Shown: positions 37,960-58,664 of the stretch, one piece after another | How the letters are laid out: the number at the start of each line of letters is the position of its first letter | Position numbering within the stretch: position 1 is the first letter of the stretch | Virus record (IMG/VR): IMGVR_UViG_3300029288_000005 | Location: 1-64,000 of that record | From: a virus | Taxonomy: Duplodnaviria; Caudoviricetes | DNA length: 64,000 nucleotides | Direction: 5' to 3' (one strand) | Made by a program: the position numbers and the translations under genes | Notes under the pieces: model-generated | Told to the model about the DNA's origin: nothing | Seen by the model: only the letters and a program-made list of their open reading frames with translations | The model's database searches: none

Positions 37960-38505
37960 ATGAAAAAACAAACACTTATCACTGTACTAAAAGAAACAGC
38001 AGAAACTTTGAGGGGAATTAAGTTTAATCCTTACCACGACTCAGAAGGCAGGTTCTCTACTGGAGGCTCAGGTGGTCCTAAACTTGCTCCTGATACAGGT
38101 GGTGGTACAGGTGGAGGGGGTAAGTTGGGTGGATCCCCGGGAGATAAGGAGAGCTACAATGACAGAATTGAGGGTACACAGAAAGAAGCAGATAGGGAAG
38201 TAAAGAGGGCGGAAAAAGTAGTGGCTACAGTGAAAGCTGCTTTGAGCAAGTTAGAAGCAAAAACATCTAAAAAACAGGTTGCTACACTAAAGGCAAAGCA
38301 CGAAGAATGTGTTAGTAAAATATCAGAATTGAAGAAACAAAAAGAAGCAACTATGAAGCGGATAGAAGCGTTAAAAGCACAGTTAAAGAAATCAGTTCAG
38401 AAAGAACTAAATAAAGAAATACTCACACTGAAGGACATAATCAATAAGTTCAGAGTTGTTACGAAAGAACTCTATACATTGATGGACGAGGTATCAAAAC
38501 TATGA
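37960..38505 (+). CDS. leader-cassette protein 1: conserved leader + coiled-coil payload
   Basis: MKKQTLITVLKETAETLRGIKFNPYHDSEGRF...GGG then Lys-rich coiled coil. Confidence 0.8.
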   Translation: MKKQTLITVLKETAETLRGIKFNPYHDSEGRFSTGGSGGPKLAPDTGGGTGGGGKLGGSPGDKESYNDRIEGTQKEADREVKRAEKVVATVKAALSKLEAKTSKKQVATLKAKHEECVSKISELKKQKEATMKRIEALKAQLKKSVQKELNKEILTLKDIINKFRVVTKELYTLMDEVSKL

Positions 38506-39299
38506 GTATGGTAGATATTAGTGAAGTCCTGTTAGATTTGGGTCTCTCAGACTCAGTTACAGATGAGGAGCGGGCTATTGTTTCGACTTCTATCAGAAGA
38601 GCTGAAGCGGCTATTAAAAGGTTCCTGGGGTATGATCCATATTGGAAGACCAGGACTGAATACTATCCACAACGAGACTTCTCTATGAGTTATGGTGCCT
38701 ATGTATGGGAGGTCAACGATACACAAGCCTATCAAAGGCACTTATCTGAAGCTGTATCCGATGTACTGATAGTGCAGCACTTGCCTATAAGAAGCATCAC
38801 TTCCCTATACATTGATTATGATGGTCGAGCAGGAGCGAGAACAGGATCGTTTTCAGAGGAATCGAAAAAGACTGAAGGTGTTGATTACTGGCCAGACTAC
38901 AATATGGTGGACGATGATGGAAATAATATGTGCTTAAGTGGTATGATAAGGAGTGAGGGGATGTGGCCCTCCAAGCCAGGAACCGTGAAGATCGTTTATA
39001 CTTCAGGATATACAGCTAAGGAATTGAGAGGGCAGTGTTCAGTGGTGGATACTACTGTATTACTGGAGGCAACTGTGGACGAGGCTGTTCGCAGAGCCAA
39101 GAAAGTCTTTCTGACAAAGAAACAAACTGGTAGGGGATTCATTGCAGGAACCATGACCAGTGAGAGTTTGGGTGATTACAGTTATAGTATAGAGGGATCC
39201 TCAGCAGCCAGTCAGTTTGGTGGTCAGTATGATCTATTGGGATCAACCATGGAGAAACTCAATGACTTTGTGAATTGGGGATATAGAATTGCCGGTTGA
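38502..39299 (+). CDS. head-tail connector/adaptor protein
   Basis: AE..IKRFLG, PI.SITS, VKIVYTSGY, SESLGDYSYS. Confidence 0.78.
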   Translation: MSMVDISEVLLDLGLSDSVTDEERAIVSTSIRRAEAAIKRFLGYDPYWKTRTEYYPQRDFSMSYGAYVWEVNDTQAYQRHLSEAVSDVLIVQHLPIRSITSLYIDYDGRAGARTGSFSEESKKTEGVDYWPDYNMVDDDGNNMCLSGMIRSEGMWPSKPGTVKIVYTSGYTAKELRGQCSVVDTTVLLEATVDEAVRRAKKVFLTKKQTGRGFIAGTMTSESLGDYSYSIEGSSAASQFGGQYDLLGSTMEKLNDFVNWGYRIAG

Positions 39300-40002
39300 A
39301 ATAAGATTTGGTATTGTTTTGACGTATAAGTGCAACATGGCTTGCAAGGGCTGTAATAGGTTCTTGGATGTAAGGCCATGGGAAGACTCTGATATTACGT
39401 TGGATGGATTGGTTGAGGGATATAATAGGGTACAGGCAACTGGATTGGTTATCCACAAGTGCCGGGTCTCGGGAGGGGAGCCTCTGCTACATCCCAGATT
39501 TGTTGATTGCATGACTATTATACAATCAATGTGGAACCAGAACTATGGTGGGCGTACTTGTGTATTTACAAATGGAAAACTCAACAGACCAGAGCCAGCG
39601 GGATGGCGTTACAATGTGTCAACCAGTGATGGGAAAAGTTACTACTTCCACCCTCCTATGATATCGCCGTATGATCTTGGTATGGAACCACTACAAGGTA
39701 TGACAATAGCTTGTAGAAGGCAGTTGGGGTGTGGGAGATTGTTTGATGCCTTTGGTTTCTCTTTCTGCGTGTTTGCTGGAGCCATTGGTAGATTGTTGGG
39801 AGTAGATCCTTACAGTCCCACACCAGTTGTAGAAGGCATATACGATATCTGTAAGCACTGCGTTTTCTCTCAGGGAATTAAGAAGGCGTTTGTGCTGTTT
39901 GATGCAGCAAACAATGGGGAAATAGAGTATCCCACAAAGTCTTACCAGTCGGCACTGGAGAAAAAGCAAAATTTTCAGTTAAAGAGGTTTTTTGAAAGAT
40001 GA
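39289..40002 (+). CDS. radical SAM protein
   Basis: CNMACKGC, SGGEPLLHP, FTNG, C-terminal Cys cluster. Confidence 0.85.
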   Translation: MPVEIRFGIVLTYKCNMACKGCNRFLDVRPWEDSDITLDGLVEGYNRVQATGLVIHKCRVSGGEPLLHPRFVDCMTIIQSMWNQNYGGRTCVFTNGKLNRPEPAGWRYNVSTSDGKSYYFHPPMISPYDLGMEPLQGMTIACRRQLGCGRLFDAFGFSFCVFAGAIGRLLGVDPYSPTPVVEGIYDICKHCVFSQGIKKAFVLFDAANNGEIEYPTKSYQSALEKKQNFQLKRFFER

Positions 40003-42213: not shown

Positions 42214-42587
42214 AGTGGTTGGAATATCTAGGAATACGTTTCAAGTTGCATAGAATCTCTAAAGCTCGACAGATGGCAGAAGCCTGGCAGAAAGAAGCAA
42301 AGTGTCTGCTAAGAAACTTAGAGAAAAAAGAAGAATTGTTGTTACTAGAGTCCTCAACTCTCAAACGTTTGGTTGAAGACGTAGAGAACAACATTCGAGA
42401 AATTAAGTCGTTAAGTGCCAAGTATGAAGTGTCTCTGGAAGCGTTGAGGAATGAGAATAAGGTAATGGCTGAGGTGACCATACCAGCTCTAACTTCAGCG
42501 TGTCAACTGGGACTTGAGCGATGGAATGCGGAGACAGCAATACAAGTGAGAAGGCAAATACTGCCCGAGTCAAAAAGTAAGGAGTAG
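42210..42587 (+). CDS. coiled-coil hypothetical protein
   Basis: ATGA overlap, heptad pattern. Confidence 0.55.
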   Translation: MKWLEYLGIRFKLHRISKARQMAEAWQKEAKCLLRNLEKKEELLLLESSTLKRLVEDVENNIREIKSLSAKYEVSLEALRNENKVMAEVTIPALTSACQLGLERWNAETAIQVRRQILPESKSKE

Positions 42588-44167
42588 TGTGTATGAACGC
42601 TCTAGTAGAATCACTCAACACAAGAAAAGCTTTTATTTCAACTGTAAGAAATCAAGCAATTGAAATGAAGGCTTCTGGTATTACACTAGATATTGGTGGG
42701 GAGGGTACCCTCAGTTCACTGAACGAGTGGCAAAGCAGATCAAAGTACTCCCAACGATATGCTCTGTGTCGAGGCATTGTCTACTCAGCGGTAAATGCAC
42801 TCGCTTCCGAAGGGGCTTCACAGCCCATAGAAGTAAAGCAACACACTAAGAAAAAGAAGCTACGTGGTACGAAGGCTGCTAAAGATGAGTTGGAAGTGTT
42901 GACTGAGCATGTACTAATAGACTGCTTTGAACGACCCAACCCTATACAGAACAAGTGGCAGTTCTTGTATTCGTTTATTGCAAATCTGGCACTCACTGGT
43001 TGGGCGTATATCATAGGAGAGGTAGACGAAGAGGACAAACCAGTCTTCTACAGCATCCCCACAACGTGGATAACACCAGACCATACAAAAGGACCGTTCG
43101 AATCTTTCAAACTACAAAATCCACACAAGCCCGGATCTGCTTCAGAGATGTTGGATAAGCGGAACGTGGGATTTGCTTACTTGCCTGATCCGTCGGACAT
43201 TATGGGAGCACTTTCTCCTGCTTCTACGCAGTTGCCCGCTATCCAGTCCAACGATAACATCTGGCAGAGTAGGTTGCAGTTTTTTAAGAACGGTATTTTT
43301 CCGGGATCTTTGGTTACAGTTGGATCTAATCCACACCCGGGAGTTCCTGCTGGTATACGACCAAGGTTAACAGGTGTGCAGAGGCAACAAGTATACAGCA
43401 TGGTTAAGAAGTTAATGTCTGGAATTGCAAACTACGGGGATCCAGCAATACTTGATGGGTTGATTGAAAAGATTGAACCGTTATCGATGAATAGCAAGGA
43501 GATGGGTTGGGAGAAGTCAGAACCAGCAACCAAGGCAGCAATCCTCAGTGCTTTTTGTGTACATCCCTACATATTGGGAGAAGCAGTGAGCGTGGGAGGT
43601 TATGCTCAAGTAGCAAACATAGAGAAGAGGTTCTATAAGAGGGTCAATACATACTTGTCGATGTTTGATACATTGATGACTTGGTTTGTGCAAGATCTAC
43701 TAGAGGACACTTCGTTAAAAGTGTGTGTGAAAGAATGTAACGCTAGTGACCCCACGTTGGATTGGGCTAACTGGAAGTATGCTCGAAGTAATGGTGATAT
43801 TACACAGAATGAACTTCGAGAAAAGTTGGGCTTGCCCCCTGATGAAGATGATAATCAGAGCGCCATTGCACCACAACTATTAACACCAATCGTACAACTG
43901 TTGGCACAGAAGGCATCTGGTGCTATTACTGTTGAGCAGATAGAGAATATATTGGTGGGTCTGGGTCTACCAACCGACCTAGCCAAGAAGGTGGCTGGAA
44001 AGGACATGCCTCCTCAACAACCTGTAGAAGGTATGGAAAAACCTGGGAAATCCCCAGAAGAGAAACCTACTGAAACAGAGTTACTCAAAGAAGCAGTAAA
44101 TCAGTTTAAGAGTTTGCCCGATAAAGAGATGGGTCGGTTAAAGTCTTTGTTGGAGATAATTGCATAG
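42587..44167 (+). CDS. portal protein (HK97 family)
   Basis: VYSAV..LA, RPNP.Q, L.LTG.AY, GALSP, FFKNG.FPG, I..AF.V.P.ILG, T.NE.RE.LGLPP. Confidence 0.9.
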   Translation: MCMNALVESLNTRKAFISTVRNQAIEMKASGITLDIGGEGTLSSLNEWQSRSKYSQRYALCRGIVYSAVNALASEGASQPIEVKQHTKKKKLRGTKAAKDELEVLTEHVLIDCFERPNPIQNKWQFLYSFIANLALTGWAYIIGEVDEEDKPVFYSIPTTWITPDHTKGPFESFKLQNPHKPGSASEMLDKRNVGFAYLPDPSDIMGALSPASTQLPAIQSNDNIWQSRLQFFKNGIFPGSLVTVGSNPHPGVPAGIRPRLTGVQRQQVYSMVKKLMSGIANYGDPAILDGLIEKIEPLSMNSKEMGWEKSEPATKAAILSAFCVHPYILGEAVSVGGYAQVANIEKRFYKRVNTYLSMFDTLMTWFVQDLLEDTSLKVCVKECNASDPTLDWANWKYARSNGDITQNELREKLGLPPDEDDNQSAIAPQLLTPIVQLLAQKASGAITVEQIENILVGLGLPTDLAKKVAGKDMPPQQPVEGMEKPGKSPEEKPTETELLKEAVNQFKSLPDKEMGRLKSLLEIIA

Positions 44168-45385
44168 ATGAAAAAACAAACACTTATCACTGTACTCAAA
44201 GAAACAGCAGAAACTTTGAGGGGAATAAAGTTCAACCCTTACCACGACTCAGAAGGTAGATTCTCTACAGGCTCGGGATCTGGTGCCCACATGGCTCCTG
44301 ATACAGGAGGAGGCACTGGTGGTGGAAGTAAGTTGGAAGAAAGAAAATTCTCTGATGAACATGTTAATAAACTTGCAAAAGCATGGAAGAATCTGAGCAA
44401 GAAAAAGTCAGAGGCTGAATTGGCTAAGTTGGGGGAGGCTGATAGATTAGAGTTAGCAAAAAAAATCTCATGGGATTTTCATAGGTACAAACCAGAAAGA
44501 AAAGAAGAGGTGTGGAAAACTCTAGGTGATTTAGAAAAGAGTGAGATTATAAAAACACAATCTGCTTTTTGGAATGATCTTAGTGATGCAAAAAAATCAG
44601 AGCTACTGGGTGTAATGAACAATAAAGAAAAAGAGGAGTTGATAAGTGGTGGAAAGCGTGTTAAAGAGGAGATGGAGAAGTTTAATCAAAAGATTCAAAA
44701 TAAGGTGGATGTAATACATTCTCAGGAAGCACAACGAATTAAAGAATCAGAAGATAAATTGATGCCTAGTAAATCAGATTTACTAGATAGACAGAAGGCG
44801 AGGGTTCGAATAGATCCTGAAGAAGGCAGTTTTGATACGTTGGCGGTTTTGCAGAAAAGAAATTACACTAAGAATGTTAGTGATGCTGCTAAAAGTGGAT
44901 TTACTGAATATTCAAGGAGTGAACAAAGTAGAAAAATAAATGGTGCTCTGCGAAAGGGAAAATCTGTAGAAGAAATAAGTCCTGAGATTGCAGAGTTGCA
45001 AAAAGCATGTAAATCCCCACTAGAATCACCCATGATTGTTTATCGAGGAATTGATTCTAAGTTTGCGAGTGAAAATTTTAAGAAAAACACTGTGTATGAA
45101 GCCAAAGGATTTGTCTCAACATCAATGAATCTGGGACAAGCTGTTCGATTTGGAATGGAAGGACTAGCTAAAGAACCTGTAGGAAGCCAAAAAGCTGTTG
45201 CAGTCATGGAAATAAAAGCAAAGAGTGGGTTTTTGGCTGCTCCGGGAGCAGGTGTGCACTCTGGGGAATATGAGGTTTTACAGGCACATAATACACAATA
45301 CAAGTTAATAGGCATTGATAATAGTGTTCCTTTACACAGGGGAAGCAGTGAAAATTTAGTAGTTTATATGTTCGAGGAGGTATAA
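44168..45385 (+). CDS. leader-cassette protein 3: conserved leader + VIP2/Alt-like ADP-ribosyltransferase
   Basis: Leader; then Y.....INGALR, VYRG, GFVSTS, EYEVL. Confidence 0.88.
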   Translation: MKKQTLITVLKETAETLRGIKFNPYHDSEGRFSTGSGSGAHMAPDTGGGTGGGSKLEERKFSDEHVNKLAKAWKNLSKKKSEAELAKLGEADRLELAKKISWDFHRYKPERKEEVWKTLGDLEKSEIIKTQSAFWNDLSDAKKSELLGVMNNKEKEELISGGKRVKEEMEKFNQKIQNKVDVIHSQEAQRIKESEDKLMPSKSDLLDRQKARVRIDPEEGSFDTLAVLQKRNYTKNVSDAAKSGFTEYSRSEQSRKINGALRKGKSVEEISPEIAELQKACKSPLESPMIVYRGIDSKFASENFKKNTVYEAKGFVSTSMNLGQAVRFGMEGLAKEPVGSQKAVAVMEIKAKSGFLAAPGAGVHSGEYEVLQAHNTQYKLIGIDNSVPLHRGSSENLVVYMFEEV

Positions 45386-45387
45386 AG

Positions 45388-45525
45388 ATGAAAAAAGACG
45401 AGAAAAAACCAGAGAATAACGAAGACAGGAAAGTGCGAGCAGAGAGGTTCTACGAAGACGAACCTGATGCGTTTGTTATAGTGAAGCCAAAGAAACAAGA
45501 TGACAAGCAAAGAAACAAAAAGTAA
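45388..45525 (+). CDS. 45-aa protein, candidate immunity protein for the upstream ART
   Basis: Manual: MKKDEKKPENNEDRKVRAERFYEDEPDAFVIVKPKKQDDKQRNKK*; GAGGAGG RBS. Confidence 0.6.
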   Translation: MKKDEKKPENNEDRKVRAERFYEDEPDAFVIVKPKKQDDKQRNKK

Positions 45526-46537
45526 AATAGTTTCTACGTTAGTTGAAACTACTACTCTAGCATTGAAACTAAAGACCAACCTCCTGCAAAAACAGATACG
45601 CAGGAAGGTTACAGATAAGGTTCACAAGTTACAGGTTGCTAAGGTGGAGAACAAGCTAGCGAAAGCCCTAGAACCAGTGTTCAAACAAGAGCTGCTAAAG
45701 TCTGCTGATAGGTTACGGGAGATTGTACCACAAGAGAAAGCAAAAGCCAATCCCGTAGCAGAAGCCATAACAGCACAGGTTCTGTCCCATGACCAGGAAT
45801 TGAAGAATAAGGTAGTCGATGCTGCTGTTCCCATTCTGGCAGTAGAGATGCTAAAGTCCATGAAGATGGTATTTGTGGAGAATGGTAGAAAAGACATCAG
45901 AAACATCCAACAGAAGTTCAACCCCCATCATGACTCTCTAGGTCGTTTTGCTACTGGTTCAGGCTCAGGCGCCCACATGGCTCCTGATACCGGCGGTGGT
46001 ACGGGTGGAGGTTCCCTCTTGGTAGGATCCAGTCAAAGAAACAAAGACGAGCTGTATAAGGAATATCGGGAAGTTTATAAAGAGAAAAAGGGAACAGATC
46101 CTAAAAATAATGAAAATTTGGTAAAAATTGCAGGTGTGAAAATAGTTTGTCCTGGGAATATAAAAAGCACCGCAGAAAGAATGTTGGCCCATGTTATTGC
46201 AGACAGCAAAACTTTGATGGATGGGTTATCGGGAGTGACTGTAACTGTAAAAAACATGGGCCAGCTTTATGGCCAGAGCAAGGGAAACAATCTTTTTGTA
46301 GATGAGAAGGTGGTAAAGGAAAAGGGAGCTGGATTTGGAGCTTCAATTGTAAGGCATGAATTGGAGCATACTTTTCTTACAAGAAAAAAGGTACCATCAG
46401 GAAAACAAGAGCCCAGAGTACGTGCAGTAACAGGCATGTTTGCTGTTGCAAAGTATAGTAGTATGGCAAAAACAAATCCTGCTGATGCAGAAGGGTTTTT
46501 GGCAGCAGCAAAAGCTTCTGGAGTTAAGATAAGATGA
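45500..46537 (+). CDS. helical (MuF N-terminal-like) domain + internal FNPHHD motif + HExxH metallopeptidase-like payload (cassette 4)
   Basis: QK-FNPHHDSLGRF..APDTGGGTGGG at aa ~139-172; IVRHELEH. Confidence 0.72.
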   Translation: MTSKETKSKIVSTLVETTTLALKLKTNLLQKQIRRKVTDKVHKLQVAKVENKLAKALEPVFKQELLKSADRLREIVPQEKAKANPVAEAITAQVLSHDQELKNKVVDAAVPILAVEMLKSMKMVFVENGRKDIRNIQQKFNPHHDSLGRFATGSGSGAHMAPDTGGGTGGGSLLVGSSQRNKDELYKEYREVYKEKKGTDPKNNENLVKIAGVKIVCPGNIKSTAERMLAHVIADSKTLMDGLSGVTVTVKNMGQLYGQSKGNNLFVDEKVVKEKGAGFGASIVRHELEHTFLTRKKVPSGKQEPRVRAVTGMFAVAKYSSMAKTNPADAEGFLAAAKASGVKIR

Positions 46538-47388
46538 GTTATAGTTGGCCTTGTTTATTTGCAGATCTTGATAAAGATTCCATCGAGTTACCAAATGGAT
46601 GGAAGCCATTGAAACCGCTTGATAAAGAGGGCGGTTCTATGTATACAAGAGCAGAAGAAAATGAAAAACAAACACTACTAAAAGCACTCAAAGAAACAGC
46701 TGAAACTCTGAGAACTATCAAGTTCAATCCTTACCACGATTCTTTAGGTAGATTCGCTACAGGTGGGTCGGGAGGAGCTGGTAGGAACTTACAACTATCT
46801 CGTGATATATTGGAGCAAACACAGAAGGATCTTAGGGAACGGAGTTTTCTAGTAGATCGAGATGGAAAAGTTGTATCTGATGTTAGTATTGGGGAAAAAG
46901 AAGAGAACGTACTAGAGTCAGGGGTGGATAGACCATATACAGAGAGTAACAATACCGAGGGGGCGGACTTAAATCTGATACATACACATCCCATTCATAC
47001 TGATGAAGAAAACCCATATACGGGATTGGGTGTGGGGGATGTTCTGAGTCTCAAGAATTCTCCTGGTATAAACAGCATTACAGCCATTGATTTAGATGGT
47101 CGTGTTCATTCCATAACAAGGGCCAGTGATGATAAGGAGTTTTTGAAAAAGTACTGGCTTAGATCGGGGGAAATTGAATCGGATCTGCGGTCTAAGATAA
47201 TCGACGAATTTATTGAGAACAAGATAACAAAAGAAGAAGCCAATAGAAAGAAACGACTAATACCCAAAGATTTGATAAAGCAGCTTCTTAAAGAGGGTTT
47301 GTTATCAAAGGAAGAGGAATGGGATTTGTTGGATGGGAATAAATCTTACAGTCTGAAGTTTAATAACAGTGGAACAGTAAATGCCTAG
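46534..47388 (+). CDS. short N-terminal peptide fused to leader-cassette protein 5 with JAB/MPN-like payload
   Basis: EKQTLLKALKETAETLRTIKFNPYHDSLGRF; payload RERS...IHTHP......GD. Confidence 0.68.
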   Translation: MSYSWPCLFADLDKDSIELPNGWKPLKPLDKEGGSMYTRAEENEKQTLLKALKETAETLRTIKFNPYHDSLGRFATGGSGGAGRNLQLSRDILEQTQKDLRERSFLVDRDGKVVSDVSIGEKEENVLESGVDRPYTESNNTEGADLNLIHTHPIHTDEENPYTGLGVGDVLSLKNSPGINSITAIDLDGRVHSITRASDDKEFLKKYWLRSGEIESDLRSKIIDEFIENKITKEEANRKKRLIPKDLIKQLLKEGLLSKEEEWDLLDGNKSYSLKFNNSGTVNA

Positions 47389-48997
47389 TACAGCATCCGA
47401 GTGGTTGGCAAGTAACCCGAACCAAGTGGCAGAACTACGAGAAGTTCTGATTGCCAATGGTGTCTCTGTTGACTTTTTGACTGAGTATCCCGACTGGATG
47501 TTGGAAAACATAGCACAGCAGTTGACAGACACTTTCTCCCAAAGCTACTGGGACGACATCGAGAAGAGTTATGGAAACGACGTGAACGAGTTACTAAGAG
47601 CTGGTATTCGTAATGGAAAGTCAATGGGTGACATCGCTCAAGAGATGACCGACCTCAGCGACGAGTATGCAGAGTCCCGGGCCATGAACATAGCCCGTAC
47701 GGAATCAGGCCATGCACTGAACGGTGCCAGAAAAGCCTCTATGGATGAGATAGTAAATGATCCACAGCTAGTGGGCACATTACGGCCTACGTGGCAATCG
47801 GCCCTAGGAACCACCACCAGGGATTCGCACGCAATACTGGACGGTGTACCGGCTGATAAAGAGGGAATGTGGACACTGTCAGGCTACAAGATTCCATGGC
47901 CTGCTCATTATAGTCTTCCACCAGGTGAGCGTTGCAACTGTCAGTGCACCATAGTCATAGAGTATGGGTTGCAGGACCTAGAAGCTCGGGATATGATAGA
48001 GCAATACAATCAGCGAGTGGAAGAATATAATAAGGATGTAAGGTTAAGGGAGAAATTCAATCCTTACCACGACTCTCTAGGTAGATTTTCTACTGGTTCA
48101 GGCTCTGGTGCTCATATGGCCCCAGACACTGGTGGGGGTACTGGTGGAGGTTCGTCAGATGGTGGAAAGATGCAAGAGGTGACATATGATAAGGACAGCA
48201 AGAAATGGTTATTAGGTAATGGAAAAGAACTACCTGACAACGTGCCCAGAATACCTCCCGCATGGACTGGTGTACGGGTAAACACCAGCAAGAATGCGGA
48301 TCTGGTAGTAGTGGGTGTGGATGCCAAGGGAAGAAAACAGAGCATATACAGTGAAGCACATTGGACTAAGGCTGCGGAGGTTAAGTTTGCAAGGGTTAAT
48401 GAGTTGCGGTCCAAAGTCAAGAACATCGAAAAAGAAATCAAAGGGGACTTAAAAGTTCCTGAGCGTAAGGAACAAGCAGCCTGCTTGAGGTTGGTTCTGG
48501 AAACAGGTATTAGACCAGGCAGTGACTCAGATACGGGAGCCGCTAAAAAAGCATACGGGGCCACTACATTAGAAGGCAGACATGTAAAGGTGGTCAATGG
48601 TGAAGTTAGACTGCAGTTTGTTGGTAAGAAGGGTGTTGACATTGATATACCCGTAACAAACAAGGCGCTGGTGGCAGACCTGTTAAAGCGAAAGAAGAAG
48701 AGTGGTGATAGTGGTAAGTTATTTAACACAAGCAATAGAAAGCTGCTCCAATATACACACACTAAAGATGGTGGCTCTTTCAAAACAAAGGACTTCCGCA
48801 CTGCCAAAGCCACAACCATGGCCATTAAGTTGGTTAGTTCCATGTCCAAACCCAAAAACCCGAAAGAGTACAAAAAGTCGGTGAAAGAAGTAGCCACGGT
48901 TGTGTCACAGTCGTTGGGTAACACACCCACCATTGCACTACAATCGTACATACACTCAGCAGTGTTTACCAAGTGGCGTGCCTCAGCAGGAGTATAG
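47381..48997 (+). CDS. MuF (SPP1 gp7-like) head morphogenesis domain + FNPYHD motif + DNA topoisomerase IB (cassette 6)
   Basis: RA.NIARTE, W......R.SH..LDG, P....P..RCNCQC; then IPPAW, D.KGR.Q..Y, GIRPG, YGATTL, F.GKKG, KDFRT, LGNTP.IA..SYI. Confidence 0.9.
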   Translation: MPSTASEWLASNPNQVAELREVLIANGVSVDFLTEYPDWMLENIAQQLTDTFSQSYWDDIEKSYGNDVNELLRAGIRNGKSMGDIAQEMTDLSDEYAESRAMNIARTESGHALNGARKASMDEIVNDPQLVGTLRPTWQSALGTTTRDSHAILDGVPADKEGMWTLSGYKIPWPAHYSLPPGERCNCQCTIVIEYGLQDLEARDMIEQYNQRVEEYNKDVRLREKFNPYHDSLGRFSTGSGSGAHMAPDTGGGTGGGSSDGGKMQEVTYDKDSKKWLLGNGKELPDNVPRIPPAWTGVRVNTSKNADLVVVGVDAKGRKQSIYSEAHWTKAAEVKFARVNELRSKVKNIEKEIKGDLKVPERKEQAACLRLVLETGIRPGSDSDTGAAKKAYGATTLEGRHVKVVNGEVRLQFVGKKGVDIDIPVTNKALVADLLKRKKKSGDSGKLFNTSNRKLLQYTHTKDGGSFKTKDFRTAKATTMAIKLVSSMSKPKNPKEYKKSVKEVATVVSQSLGNTPTIALQSYIHSAVFTKWRASAGV

Positions 48998-49000
48998 ACT

Positions 49001-49177
49001 ATGGTAGAGATATTCGGAGACGACCAGGACGTCAACTTTGGTGGGGTTGACAAGCCCGCTGTTGATTGGAGAAGCAATAACCAAGACGACGGGGACCCTG
49101 ATGATGAGTTGTTGAGACCCACACCATTGGATGTGATAGCAATTCTAGGTTTTGATCCACTGGAACTGGAAGAATGA
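49001..49177 (+). CDS. 58-aa highly acidic protein, candidate inhibitor/partner of TopIB
   Basis: Manual: MVEIFGDDQDVNFGGVDKPAVDWRSNNQDDGDPDDELLRPTPLDVIAILGFDPLELEE*; AGGAG RBS. Confidence 0.65.
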   Translation: MVEIFGDDQDVNFGGVDKPAVDWRSNNQDDGDPDDELLRPTPLDVIAILGFDPLELEE

Positions 49178-49488
49178 TACACCCCGACATACAACAAGCA
49201 GTTTTAGAATGTAAAGGCAAGATGTCGCAGCAGGCAATATCTGCCAGGTTTCACATATCACGTCAAACCGTTAGGAGTATACTAAGACGTGGTTATGTAA
49301 AGTATCAACCACTTGGTTGTACTGAGTACGATATTGCTGAAAACAAAGAGTCAAAGGAATACACACTGAAAGCAGGATGGACGGGAGCAGTTGAACGTTG
49401 CCACAAGTGTGGTAGATTGGTACAGTTACCTTGCTTGGCGTGTAGGATTGAAGAAATGGCAAAAAGGAAACGCGGTGTGTTAGTATGA
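49174..49488 (+). CDS. HTH + Zn-finger DNA-binding protein
   Basis: MSQQAISARFHISRQTVRSIL; RCHKCG...PCLAC. Confidence 0.7.
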   Translation: MIHPDIQQAVLECKGKMSQQAISARFHISRQTVRSILRRGYVKYQPLGCTEYDIAENKESKEYTLKAGWTGAVERCHKCGRLVQLPCLACRIEEMAKRKRGVLV

Positions 49489-56807: not shown

Positions 56808-58643
56808 GTGCCAATACCCAAGCCCAATACTGGTGAGAAGAAAGACGATTTTATAGCTCGTTGTATGTCGAACAGTATAATGAACGAAGATTATCCTGAC
56901 AACAAACAACGAGCAGCAGTTTGTTATACCCAGTGGAAGGAGAAGTCGGTTAGCATGGACAACAATTGGCTGTTAAGTCAGATCCGAAACCGGAAAGAAA
57001 AGCTCACTAGTTTTGGTCGAGGAATTACAACAGCAGACGCTTACGTAAAGACCCTTGCTGACGTGGCTGGTTTGGATGTTTGCTATAAGAGGCTCTCAAC
57101 CAGAACTGTGAGTTTTGATGACATACTTCAGAAAGCAGCTAAAACTCTGGTATACTCCAACGACCAGATGGATTTGGAAGCTAAAGCAGATTCTACTTAC
57201 AAATACAAGGATCTGCTCAAAGGTCTCAAAGACGTAAAAATACCGAAAAACACCCTCATACTCTTTCGTCACAAGTTGACAACTTCTATAGAGGATCGGG
57301 ACAAAGACATTCTTCACTCCGAAGGCATGGAACTCGACCCGAAAATGCTCCTCCTCTGGCAACACGTACACACCATGCCTATCGGTAAGTACGTACACAC
57401 TGTTTCACAGGACGACAAGAGTGTGAGGGTTATTTCTGCTATTGTGGATATAAACGAGACATCCCATGATGCGGCTGTGATGATCGACAGTGGAATGGGG
57501 CGTTTCAGTCATGGTTTCAAAGCCACTGAGTTCCAAAAACGAAAGTCTCACAGTGGTAAGGAAACTGGTGGCTTTGAGATCCACCGTGCTGAGATCATGG
57601 AGGAGTCGTTGGTTTCCGTTCCTGCAAACCCGGGTGCTGAAACTGAGGAAATCATTCTCTCACTGGTTGAAGGGGGTAAGTTAACTTCTCCTGTAATGAA
57701 GTCAGTGGGTAGATCCATTCGAGAAAAACGACCTCTGCAGATGCAAGGCATTACCTATAGAGAAACAGTGGGGGATTCCACAAAAGAGCTCACATGCCAG
57801 TCTTTTGAGGATTTGAAGAAGCTGGCCGACCATGGTGTAATTGGTACTAAAAAGGAGAAAGAAGATGAGAACTTGTCAGGAACTGAACAAGATGAGGAAG
57901 GAAGAGAAGGCGCCGCATCAGAAGAAACCAATGACGATGCAGACAAAGCAGCAAATAACAAAACGAAAAACACCAGTGACTCACAAGTAGAGTCAGACAA
58001 GAGTGCAAAGATCACAACAAAAAACATGCCTGAAGTTTCTAGCAAAGCCTATATTGACTTGCCCAATAGCTATGAAGTAGTAACCTCTTGTTTGTCCAAG
58101 TTAATCAATGAGAAGTTTGGTCAAAGTGCTTGGTTAATTGCTACTTTTACTGGTCGTGCTGTATTTGAAGACTTCAGAGCTGGTCAGAAGAAGTATTACA
58201 GTATCGAGTGGGAGAATGTTGATGGGAAGATCAAACTCAAGGAAGTGGAGAAAGAAGTTGAGCTAAAAGTTGATGTCGTACAGAAATCAATGAAATTGTT
58301 CAATACACTCAACTCGCAAAAACAAGGAAGAACACTATCCCGAGCAAATGAAACCAAAATACAGGACGCTAGAGATGATATAAAAGAAGCTTCCAAGATG
58401 GAAGGTCTTAGTAGAAGTTGTTTGGCCTTGTTAAGCAAGGCGTTTAACAGTCTGGGACAGGTGCTCAAGTCACTGGGATCAGAGCCGGAACCCGAAAAGG
58501 AAATTACTATCGAGGAAGCAAAGGTTGTTTTCTTGAAGAATTCAACAGTAGAAGACAGGCAGCAAATGGAAACCCTCCTAAGTGCTATGTCAACTGTGGA
58601 CAGACGAGCGGAAACCACAAAGTGGTTCAAGTCTCTAAAATGA
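56808..58643 (+). CDS. prohead maturation protease (HK97 family) with scaffold-like extension
   Basis: MP.PKP..GE...DFIARCM N-domain; DRD.D, LLWQH....PIG, FS.GF, E.SLVSVPANP; K.GR.LS.AN. Confidence 0.9.
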   Translation: MPIPKPNTGEKKDDFIARCMSNSIMNEDYPDNKQRAAVCYTQWKEKSVSMDNNWLLSQIRNRKEKLTSFGRGITTADAYVKTLADVAGLDVCYKRLSTRTVSFDDILQKAAKTLVYSNDQMDLEAKADSTYKYKDLLKGLKDVKIPKNTLILFRHKLTTSIEDRDKDILHSEGMELDPKMLLLWQHVHTMPIGKYVHTVSQDDKSVRVISAIVDINETSHDAAVMIDSGMGRFSHGFKATEFQKRKSHSGKETGGFEIHRAEIMEESLVSVPANPGAETEEIILSLVEGGKLTSPVMKSVGRSIREKRPLQMQGITYRETVGDSTKELTCQSFEDLKKLADHGVIGTKKEKEDENLSGTEQDEEGREGAASEETNDDADKAANNKTKNTSDSQVESDKSAKITTKNMPEVSSKAYIDLPNSYEVVTSCLSKLINEKFGQSAWLIATFTGRAVFEDFRAGQKKYYSIEWENVDGKIKLKEVEKEVELKVDVVQKSMKLFNTLNSQKQGRTLSRANETKIQDARDDIKEASKMEGLSRSCLALLSKAFNSLGQVLKSLGSEPEPEKEITIEEAKVVFLKNSTVEDRQQMETLLSAMSTVDRRAETTKWFKSLK

Positions 58644-58664
58644 ACTGTGAAAGGAACATTTACT

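Follow-up and report, generated by a model that had tools for sequence, protein, structure and literature searches.

What does a type IB topoisomerase (TopIB) do at the C-terminus of a phage head protein, and what is the role of the small acidic open reading frame (ORF) that follows it? Both questions are raised by a locus of the virus record IMGVR_UViG_3300029288_000005 (Duplodnaviria; Caudoviricetes), of which we analysed positions 1 to 64,000 (hereafter, the window), i.e., the first 64 kb of a complete virus record of 93,023 bp with direct terminal repeats (DTR). With a probability that we put at about one half, the locus encodes a topoisomerase that resides inside the capsid and is probably ejected, with an acidic partner bound to its basic DNA clamp. 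This reading is based on the architecture of the fusion, the catalytic residues, the fold, the recurrence of carrier fusions and the linkage of the two genes in both directions. The elements in question are the following (amino acid, aa, numbers are those of the fusion ORF):

47381..48997, + strand: MuF::TopIB fusion ORF, 538 aa
47579..47953, + strand: MuF (SPP1 gp7-type head morphogenesis) domain, aa 67-191, PF04233
48053..48154, + strand: junction K-FNPYHD-x2-GRF with Gly-rich linker, aa 225-258
48176..48994, + strand: predicted complete type IB topoisomerase, N-terminal beta and catalytic domain, aa 266-538
48512..48514, + strand: codon of catalytic Arg378 (GIRPG), aligned to Arg137 of the Deinococcus radiodurans enzyme (Dra)
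48626..48628, + strand: codon of catalytic Lys416 (first K of GKK), aligned to Dra Lys174
48797..48799, + strand: codon of catalytic Arg473 (DFRT); KDFRT is the same as in Dra TopIB (R239)
48920..48922, + strand: codon of Asn514 (LGNT); LGNTP aligned to Dra TopIB N280
48947..48949, + strand: codon of active-site Tyr523 (SYI), aligned to Dra TopIB Y289
48988..48992, + strand: Shine-Dalgarno-like AGGAG, 8 nucleotides (nt) before the ATG of the acidic ORF, inside the 3' end of TopIB
49001..49177, + strand: 58-aa acidic partner domain of phage-type TopIB

A preliminary description of this DNA, made from its letters alone, had reported a MuF domain, an FNPYHD linker and a TopIB in one ORF, and this architecture was borne out. 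The N-terminal part of the protein matched Phage_Mu_F in Pfam (PF04233; 45.9 bits against a cut-off of 29.6, aa 67-191) and the PHROG head morphogenesis family phrog_2468 (E 2e-22), KFNPYHD lies at aa 225-231, and the C-terminal part matched Topoisom_I (PF01028; 71.3 bits against a cut-off of 23.7, aa 333-521). The N-terminal domain of the topoisomerase reached only 18.9 bits with PF21338, under the cut-off of that family. Among PDB chains, phmmer retrieved the TopIB of D. radiodurans (2f4q, E 5.8e-17) and that of variola virus (2h7f, E 3.9e-8), and the vaccinia enzyme was matched as well. An AlphaFold2 model of aa 266-538 (pLDDT 96.4, pTM 0.89) was aligned by Foldseek to the variola TopIB-DNA structure over both domains (TM-score 0.77, 288 columns, E 2.7e-13). 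We defined the catalytic positions from the HMMER alignment to 2f4q and from the positions of the motifs. Across 64 aligned phage homologues, R378, R473, Y523 and K417 were invariant, and N514 and K416 were found in at least 90% of the sequences. The retention of the catalytic residues, which had been proposed from motifs, is thereby upheld with one refinement: the catalytic lysine of GKK is present and corresponds to the first K (K416). Together, the alignments and the structural model confirm the prediction that ORF 47381-48997 encodes a complete TopIB with its catalytic residues intact.

The phage enzyme shares the two-domain clamp fold of about 270 aa with the bacterial and poxvirus enzymes (2f4q/3m4a and 2h7f/1a41, respectively), and its active site, R-K-R-N-Y, is that of bacterial TopIB. 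Asparagine at this position is the bacterial-type replacement of the poxvirus histidine. In contrast to the cellular and poxvirus enzymes, it follows a head carrier and a junction motif in one polypeptide. It also ends about 10 residues after the helix of the active-site tyrosine, whereas cellular TopIB extends into a C-terminal tail of about 45 aa, and it is accompanied by a separate acidic domain that is absent from cellular genes.

We searched 1.84 billion cluster representatives (50%-identity clusters) with the TopIB domain using HMMER and obtained 4663 matches at E<=0.001, of which 1126 clusters reached E<=1e-30. The match formed the extreme C-terminus in most of the 150 best representatives (proteins of 300-1800 aa), and the domain ended at most 10 residues from the end of the protein in about 75 of 81 viral loci. 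Sixty proteins had an N-terminal extension of 120 aa or more, which contained portal families in about 30 of them (PF06381 in 23, plus PF06074, PF04860, PF05136 and the P23-45 portal) and MuF in four, and NUDIX, InPase and ADP-ribosyltransferase (ART) domains were found among the others. Relatives longer than 1000 aa exist with a portal, NUDIX, InPase or ART domain before TopIB. Stand-alone TopIB genes are often preceded by a gene for a portal or for a portal-MuF fusion. This clade of topoisomerases is nearly always a C-terminal payload of portal, MuF or other head-module carriers. Sequence identity to the phage enzyme was 31-33% for the cellular TopIB of Rufibacter and Pedobacter and 40-67% within the phage clade.

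A search for MuF-TopIB architectures, proposed as a check in the preliminary description, returned PF04233 combined with PF01028 in 12 of the 120 best word-index matches. The closest full-length MuF core::TopIB proteins were P0002 (49% identity) and P0003 (47%), each over 99% of the length; they come from independent samples and carry other junction motifs, and P0003 was seen on 9 contigs. Locus L009 provides a further case. A topoisomerase had been called an unusual extension of MuF, which is correct in that the TopIB domain is in neither of the two reference surveys discussed below, but the fusion is recurrent in metagenomes, where portal-TopIB fusions are commoner still. No MuF-TopIB fusion was detected by tblastn in 50,697 cultured phage records, whose sole TopIB match was a stand-alone gene of Bacteroides phage BS162P1 in an unrelated context. 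The 1034-aa MuF::TopIB of L009 (L009:3691-5994) shows a weak Intein_splicing match before MuF (E 2.7e-6, under the cut-off). Another locus, L013, has a 723-aa portal-MuF fusion (L013:2652-4820, both Pfam domains significant) directly upstream of a stand-alone TopIB and an acidic::ferritin gene.

The linker between carrier and topoisomerase also recurs. We recognised a junction motif at most 70 aa before TopIB in 55 of 71 proteins: HPR..GxF in 36, xPRD..GxW in 8, NPxHD..GRF, the type of this phage, in 4, GNFGHxGRxGxVGG in 3, and others in the remainder, each class being followed by Gly-rich sequence. The junction of the window reads K-FNPYHD-SL-GRF, with its Gly-rich part extending to about aa 258. 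It is one of seven copies in the genome, three of which (at 37960, about 40056 and 61980) lie outside the array of cargo genes described below.

The acidic ORF has a net charge of -14 and an isoelectric point (pI) of 4.05, and the TopIB domain (aa 266-538) has a net charge of +25 and a pI of 10.0; the median net charges across the families are -14 and +14, respectively. The preliminary description had pointed to a downstream Asp/Glu-rich ORF of 58 aa, which we now regard as a real gene given the AGGAG upstream, a homologue in a relative and the linkage of the domain to TopIB. The homologue is an ORF of 56-60 aa directly behind the TopIB of the related 93-kb phage L008 (61% identity, E 1e-15). 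The domain has the consensus FG..DWR..DPDDEEL..TP.DV(I/V)..LGFDP and is present in a single copy in the genome. We found it with neither a family in Pfam or PHROGs nor a meaningful profile match in the PDB, and in the ESM Atlas it matched unnamed clusters only (scores <=0.76).

Using phmmer and then a profile hidden Markov model, we identified the acidic domain in 69 of 81 TopIB loci, in 62 of which it started at most 150 nt from the end of TopIB, usually overlapping the stop codon. Three of the 12 loci that lack it have no room downstream. We then reversed the search using only a degenerate DNA pattern for TP.DV(I/V)..LGFDP. This yielded 78 stretches, from which 77 newly fetched loci were scanned for an upstream TopIB; 72 of these had enough upstream sequence to be evaluated, and a TopIB ended 60-185 nt upstream of the motif in 69 of these 72. 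The domain follows both of the closest MuF::TopIB fusions, P0002 and P0003. In a genome collection, it accompanied all six phage-type TopIB genes (from metagenome-assembled genomes labelled as six phyla) and none of the four cellular ones. The acidic domain is thus tied almost exclusively to this TopIB, in both directions.

Two other origins of the acidic ORF were considered and rejected. By hhalign it is not related to the C-terminal tail of cellular TopIB (probability 0.04), from which it might have split off. The TopIB gene ends with a TAG located three bases upstream of the acidic ATG and in the same frame, and recoding of this stop codon could fuse the two ORFs. All three stop codons are in use in the genome, TAG terminates 19 of 73 long frames, no tRNA lies in the window, and the two ORFs overlap in other frames in relatives, all of which disfavours recoding.

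We co-folded the TopIB domain and the acidic ORF, using a separate alignment for each, and obtained weak support for binding (score 0.54; best of three controls, 0.00). The mark that we used was reached by 58 of 80 solved complexes and by 2 of 110 mismatched pairs; scores of 0.60 or less were found in only 7 of the 80 solved complexes and in both of the mismatches that passed. At least 41% of the contacts agreed between runs, and the output gave no interface. Considered with the linkage of the two genes, which provides a strong prior, we take it as likely from sequence and model that the acidic partner binds TopIB. The preliminary description had suggested that the peptide keeps the enzyme inactive; such inhibition may be one option, and it now rests on genomic linkage in addition to composition.

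TopIB and the acidic domain travel together between carriers. Among close relatives whose TopIB is at least 55% identical, the carrier is a MuF core in this phage, P0002 and P0003, a helical domain (X) in P0006 of L008 and in P0010, a portal in P0019 and a short leader of another type in P0004. The X domain is also encoded in the window:

45500..45910, + strand: helical X carrier domain, N-terminal 137 aa of ORF 45500-46537

In L008, MuF carries a metallopeptidase-like domain and an X-type carrier bears TopIB with the acidic ORF directly behind; relative to this phage, the carriers are reversed and the acidic ORF has moved along with TopIB. P0003 combines an X domain and a MuF core in one protein directly after the portal: its aa 2-118 are homologous to the X domain of the window (BLASTP E 6e-9) and its aa 141-660 align to the whole MuF::TopIB ORF (47% identity). 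In the relative L178, the homologue directly follows the portal. Because P0003 has a homologue of the X domain at its N-terminus, ahead of the MuF core, a MuF-type protein appears to have been split in this phage. Two loci, L058 and L067, encode TopIB with the acidic domain as an in-frame C-terminal extension; in L067, no junction motif separates the two, and one (EHPR..GGGEF plus poly-Gly) is found after the acidic domain, before the next payload. Judged from these arrangements, TopIB and the acidic domain behave as one mobile cargo unit bounded by junction motifs.

The mechanism that we favour can be described as follows. The MuF core, a portal-associated head protein, or another carrier would bring TopIB into the capsid; since the carriers are the C-terminus of portals, MuF and other proteins of the head module, the topoisomerase would be positioned inside the capsid at the portal vertex. 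TopIB would be freed at the junction during head maturation, would leave the capsid together with the DNA at infection and would then relax supercoils in the incoming genome and/or in host DNA. The acidic partner would bind the basic TopIB clamp, in trans or, in some phages, in cis, and would keep it off DNA until release. Where the acidic domain is followed by a further payload, it may serve to anchor that payload on TopIB. All of these steps, from packaging, cleavage and ejection to relaxation, binding and inhibition, are inferred. The syntax shared with ART, NUDIX and InPase payloads favours delivery, and the suggestion of a virion-delivered topoisomerase made in the preliminary description fits this genomic context.

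Several points weigh against this mechanism. An enzyme fused to the portal could be ejected only if it is cleaved, and cleavage at the junction is a conjecture. The target of relaxation after injection is left as either incoming or host DNA. The acidic domain itself was predicted at low confidence (pLDDT of about 50), and the co-fold score lies in a weak range. In 21 loci, the acidic domain forms the N-terminus of a longer ORF with unrelated payloads, an arrangement that a carrier or adaptor role explains no less well than an inhibitory one. Finally, Logan unitigs of the source run and of three other runs break and branch at 48052-48153, i.e., at the junction, with other flanks attached on both sides.

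The alternative that survives best, although we consider it unlikely, is that TopIB stays tethered to the portal or MuF and serves as a swivel or end-processing enzyme on phage DNA during packaging or ejection, with the acidic domain gating its activity. The many direct portal fusions favour an enzyme that stays at the portal: about half of the long forms are fused to the C-terminus of a portal, which would place the enzyme on the capsid-interior side, where DNA passes. SPP1-type MuF is likewise a portal-associated head protein (PMC5512222), and the catalytic residues are strongly conserved. In contrast, the same carriers bear host-directed payloads (ART, NUDIX, InPase and 2H) that published work interprets as injected effectors, and TopIB, like those payloads, comes after a conserved junction motif. 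A further point against the tethered enzyme concerns CCCTT, the cleavage site of the poxvirus and Deinococcus enzymes. We counted 101 occurrences against 147 in dinucleotide shuffles; given tetranucleotide content, the motif is neither enriched nor depleted (105.5 expected from a third-order Markov model, rank 175 of 512), so there is no signal of avoidance or enrichment that the tethered enzyme could claim.

The 21 longer ORFs lead to a second alternative, which we regard as somewhat less probable again: the acidic ORF might be a small carrier or head-assembly domain that serves as a docking tag for cargo and does not regulate TopIB. A docking role is possible because the acidic domain heads longer proteins, before a junction and an unrelated payload, and this syntax is that of MuF, the portal and the leader helix of this phage. 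The payloads comprise ART (6 cases), DUF2213, InPase, ferritin, MuF, an XkdF-type protease, NUDIX, a PI3/4-kinase-like domain and a 2H domain, and a junction motif lies between the acidic domain and the payload in several of these ORFs. Against a mere tag, neither the carrier nor the downstream gene makes a difference to the position of the acidic domain, which is almost exclusively behind TopIB; it stands alone without payload in 37 of about 60 loci, it is directly fused to the C-terminus of TopIB in L058 and L067, and it is limited to one copy per genome here. A docking role would, moreover, still imply binding to TopIB, as in the mechanism that we favour. Some of the acidic-headed loci, including L013:5888-6559, L025:6804-8729 and L021:6768-8051, are unusual candidates for virion cargo.

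It is also conceivable, at a low probability, that TopIB is a MuF polymorphic toxin used in competition between bacteria and that the acidic ORF encodes its immunity protein. The syntax matches, with an N-terminal MuF, a swappable C-terminal domain and a small conserved ORF, and payload and small ORF move jointly between carriers. Nevertheless, TopIB is no obvious toxin because it reseals the DNA that it cuts, and most carriers are portals, which are structural. We found no match to tyrosine or serine recombinases (PF00589, PF00239) in the complete 93,023-bp DTR genome, which fits a lytic phage with injected cargo, and topoisomerases are not mentioned in the survey of these toxins by Jamet et al. 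(PMC5576092).

Least probable of all, and by our estimate very improbable, is an assembly chimera joined at junction DNA common to co-occurring strains: the branching unitigs described above would be expected from it, but this junction copy shares no exact word of at least 18 nt with the other six in the window, the two flanking unitigs of the source run overlap and match the window without any difference, and MuF core::TopIB proteins with other junction motifs were recovered from independent samples (P0002, L009, and P0003 on its 9 contigs). Conserved junction DNA in a single metagenome contig can produce chimeric joins. Because the unitigs branch exactly at the junction and with differing flanks, they suggest that, in natural populations, this junction is common to many cassette contexts. 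The branching unitigs (runs X1, X2, X3 and X6) come from landfill and wastewater metagenomes, and one of the alternative flanks is an ETAETLR..IK leader.

Two known systems provide the closest parallels to the head-protein fusion. MuF polymorphic toxins have been described in temperate phages and proposed to serve in competition between bacteria (Jamet et al. 2017, PMC5576092), and phage polyvalent proteins include MuF or portal fusions whose payloads were read as injected (Iyer et al. 2017, PMC5512222). Like both, the present locus combines a head-module carrier with a variable C-terminal enzymatic domain; ART, NUDIX, InPase, 2H and metallopeptidase payloads co-occur, and packaging followed by injection has been proposed. 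As in the toxins, an N-terminal MuF is followed by a C-terminal domain that varies (metallopeptidase-like in L008), and as in polyvalent proteins, disparate domains are joined in one polypeptide in a virion-packaging context. Unlike in these systems, the payload is TopIB, a dedicated and clade-specific acidic partner follows, and a short junction (FNPYHD..GRF, HPR..GxF and variants) marks the boundary between carrier and payload; moreover, in contrast to the temperate phages or prophages that carry MuF toxins, this phage has no integrase. A text search of the published catalogue of polyvalent proteins found no TopIB domain (in PMC5512222, "topoisomerase" occurs only in the title of a reference on Toprim), and one of PMC5576092 found none either. 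Literature searches on MuF- or portal-TopIB fusions, on the junction motif and on phage TopIB in metagenomes returned nothing relevant, with a coverage that was incomplete. The logic of carrier and payload is therefore known, and the TopIB payload, the clade-specific acidic partner and the scale of the family appear to be new.

The acidic partner can be compared to known acidic proteins by functional analogy only. Ocr and ArdA are acidic DNA mimics, and T7 gp2.5 and HMGB1 possess acidic auto-inhibitory tails. The phage domain is likewise small, strongly acidic and encoded beside, or fused to, a very basic enzyme that clamps DNA. In contrast to these examples, it shows neither sequence nor profile similarity to any solved protein, it yields no confident structure, and it also heads other cargo proteins as their N-terminal module.

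The virion core of vaccinia virus contains a packaged TopIB, and the arrangement proposed here would follow the same logic, predicted in this case from genes and models. The recurrence of the acidic partner beside this TopIB across hundreds of uncultured phages suggests that many phages carry a virion topoisomerase as poxviruses do. Proteins that travel with phage DNA decide the first minutes of infection, and those known are mostly ADP-ribosyltransferases, nucleases, peptidases, polymerases and anti-restriction proteins. A TopIB tethered to portal or MuF in more than 1000 50%-identity clusters would add DNA topology to this virion cargo and would be a counterpart of the TopIB that poxviruses package. 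Its linkage in both directions to an acidic domain that had no name before yields a concrete hypothesis that can be tested cheaply, namely that the two bind and that the partner affects relaxation. Junction motifs mark the points at which carriers and payloads are exchanged, which could aid the annotation of virion cargo in metagenomes and the design of capsid-loading tags. The phage clade also adds an unsampled branch from which the origin of the bacterial and poxvirus enzymes can be approached.

A broader and more doubtful proposition is that a virion TopIB at the portal vertex, with its own acidic regulatory subunit, is standard in a very large clade of uncultured tailed phages, and that bacteria and giant viruses may have obtained their "poxvirus-like" TopIB from this clade. 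To our knowledge, encapsidated TopIB has so far been a peculiarity of poxviruses; if the proposition is true, it would be widespread among dsDNA viruses and possibly ancient. The enzyme might then be a DNA swivel or end-processing device at the portal, as opposed to an ordinary host-directed effector.

The surroundings of the locus are those of a head module. All long ORFs of the window are on the + strand, and its DNA was matched in landfill metagenomes from two studies. The MuF::TopIB ORF is found near the portal gene, from which it is separated by three cargo genes:

42587..44167, + strand: portal protein, start of the head cargo array (Pfam Phage_portal, E 1.5e-26, 93.8 bits)
44168..45385, + strand: short leader helix, junction and ADP-ribosyltransferase (PF03496)
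45500..46537, + strand: 137-aa helical domain, junction and HExxH domain
46534..47388, + strand: leader, FNPYHD junction and C-terminal domain of about 190 aa

Including MuF::TopIB, four consecutive ORFs 3' of the portal each contain the junction motif. The C-terminal domain of ORF 46534-47388 had no match in Pfam or PHROG. Further downstream, head genes continue with a protease/scaffold-like gene at 56808 and the major capsid gene at 58647.

A Lys/Glu-rich ORF of 45 aa (45388-45525) lies directly 3' of the ART cargo gene 44168-45385. By eye, it has the core ..RAERFYED.P..F.I.. in common with a 63-aa ORF of L008 (L008:6939-7130), which sits behind the first ART gene of that phage. The ART gene and its small ORF may thus form a second pair of payload and small ORF, judging from these sequences. 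Downstream of the acidic ORF, a 104-aa ORF (49174-49488) is translationally coupled to it via an ATGA overlap; this ORF gave weak helix-turn-helix matches (HTH_23 and Sigma70_r4), all slightly under their cut-offs, and has no counterpart at the same position in L008, L177 or L178. Finally, genes similar to Radical SAM enzymes and QueE adjoin the head module upstream, both in the window (39289-40002) and in L008 (L008:1413-2189).

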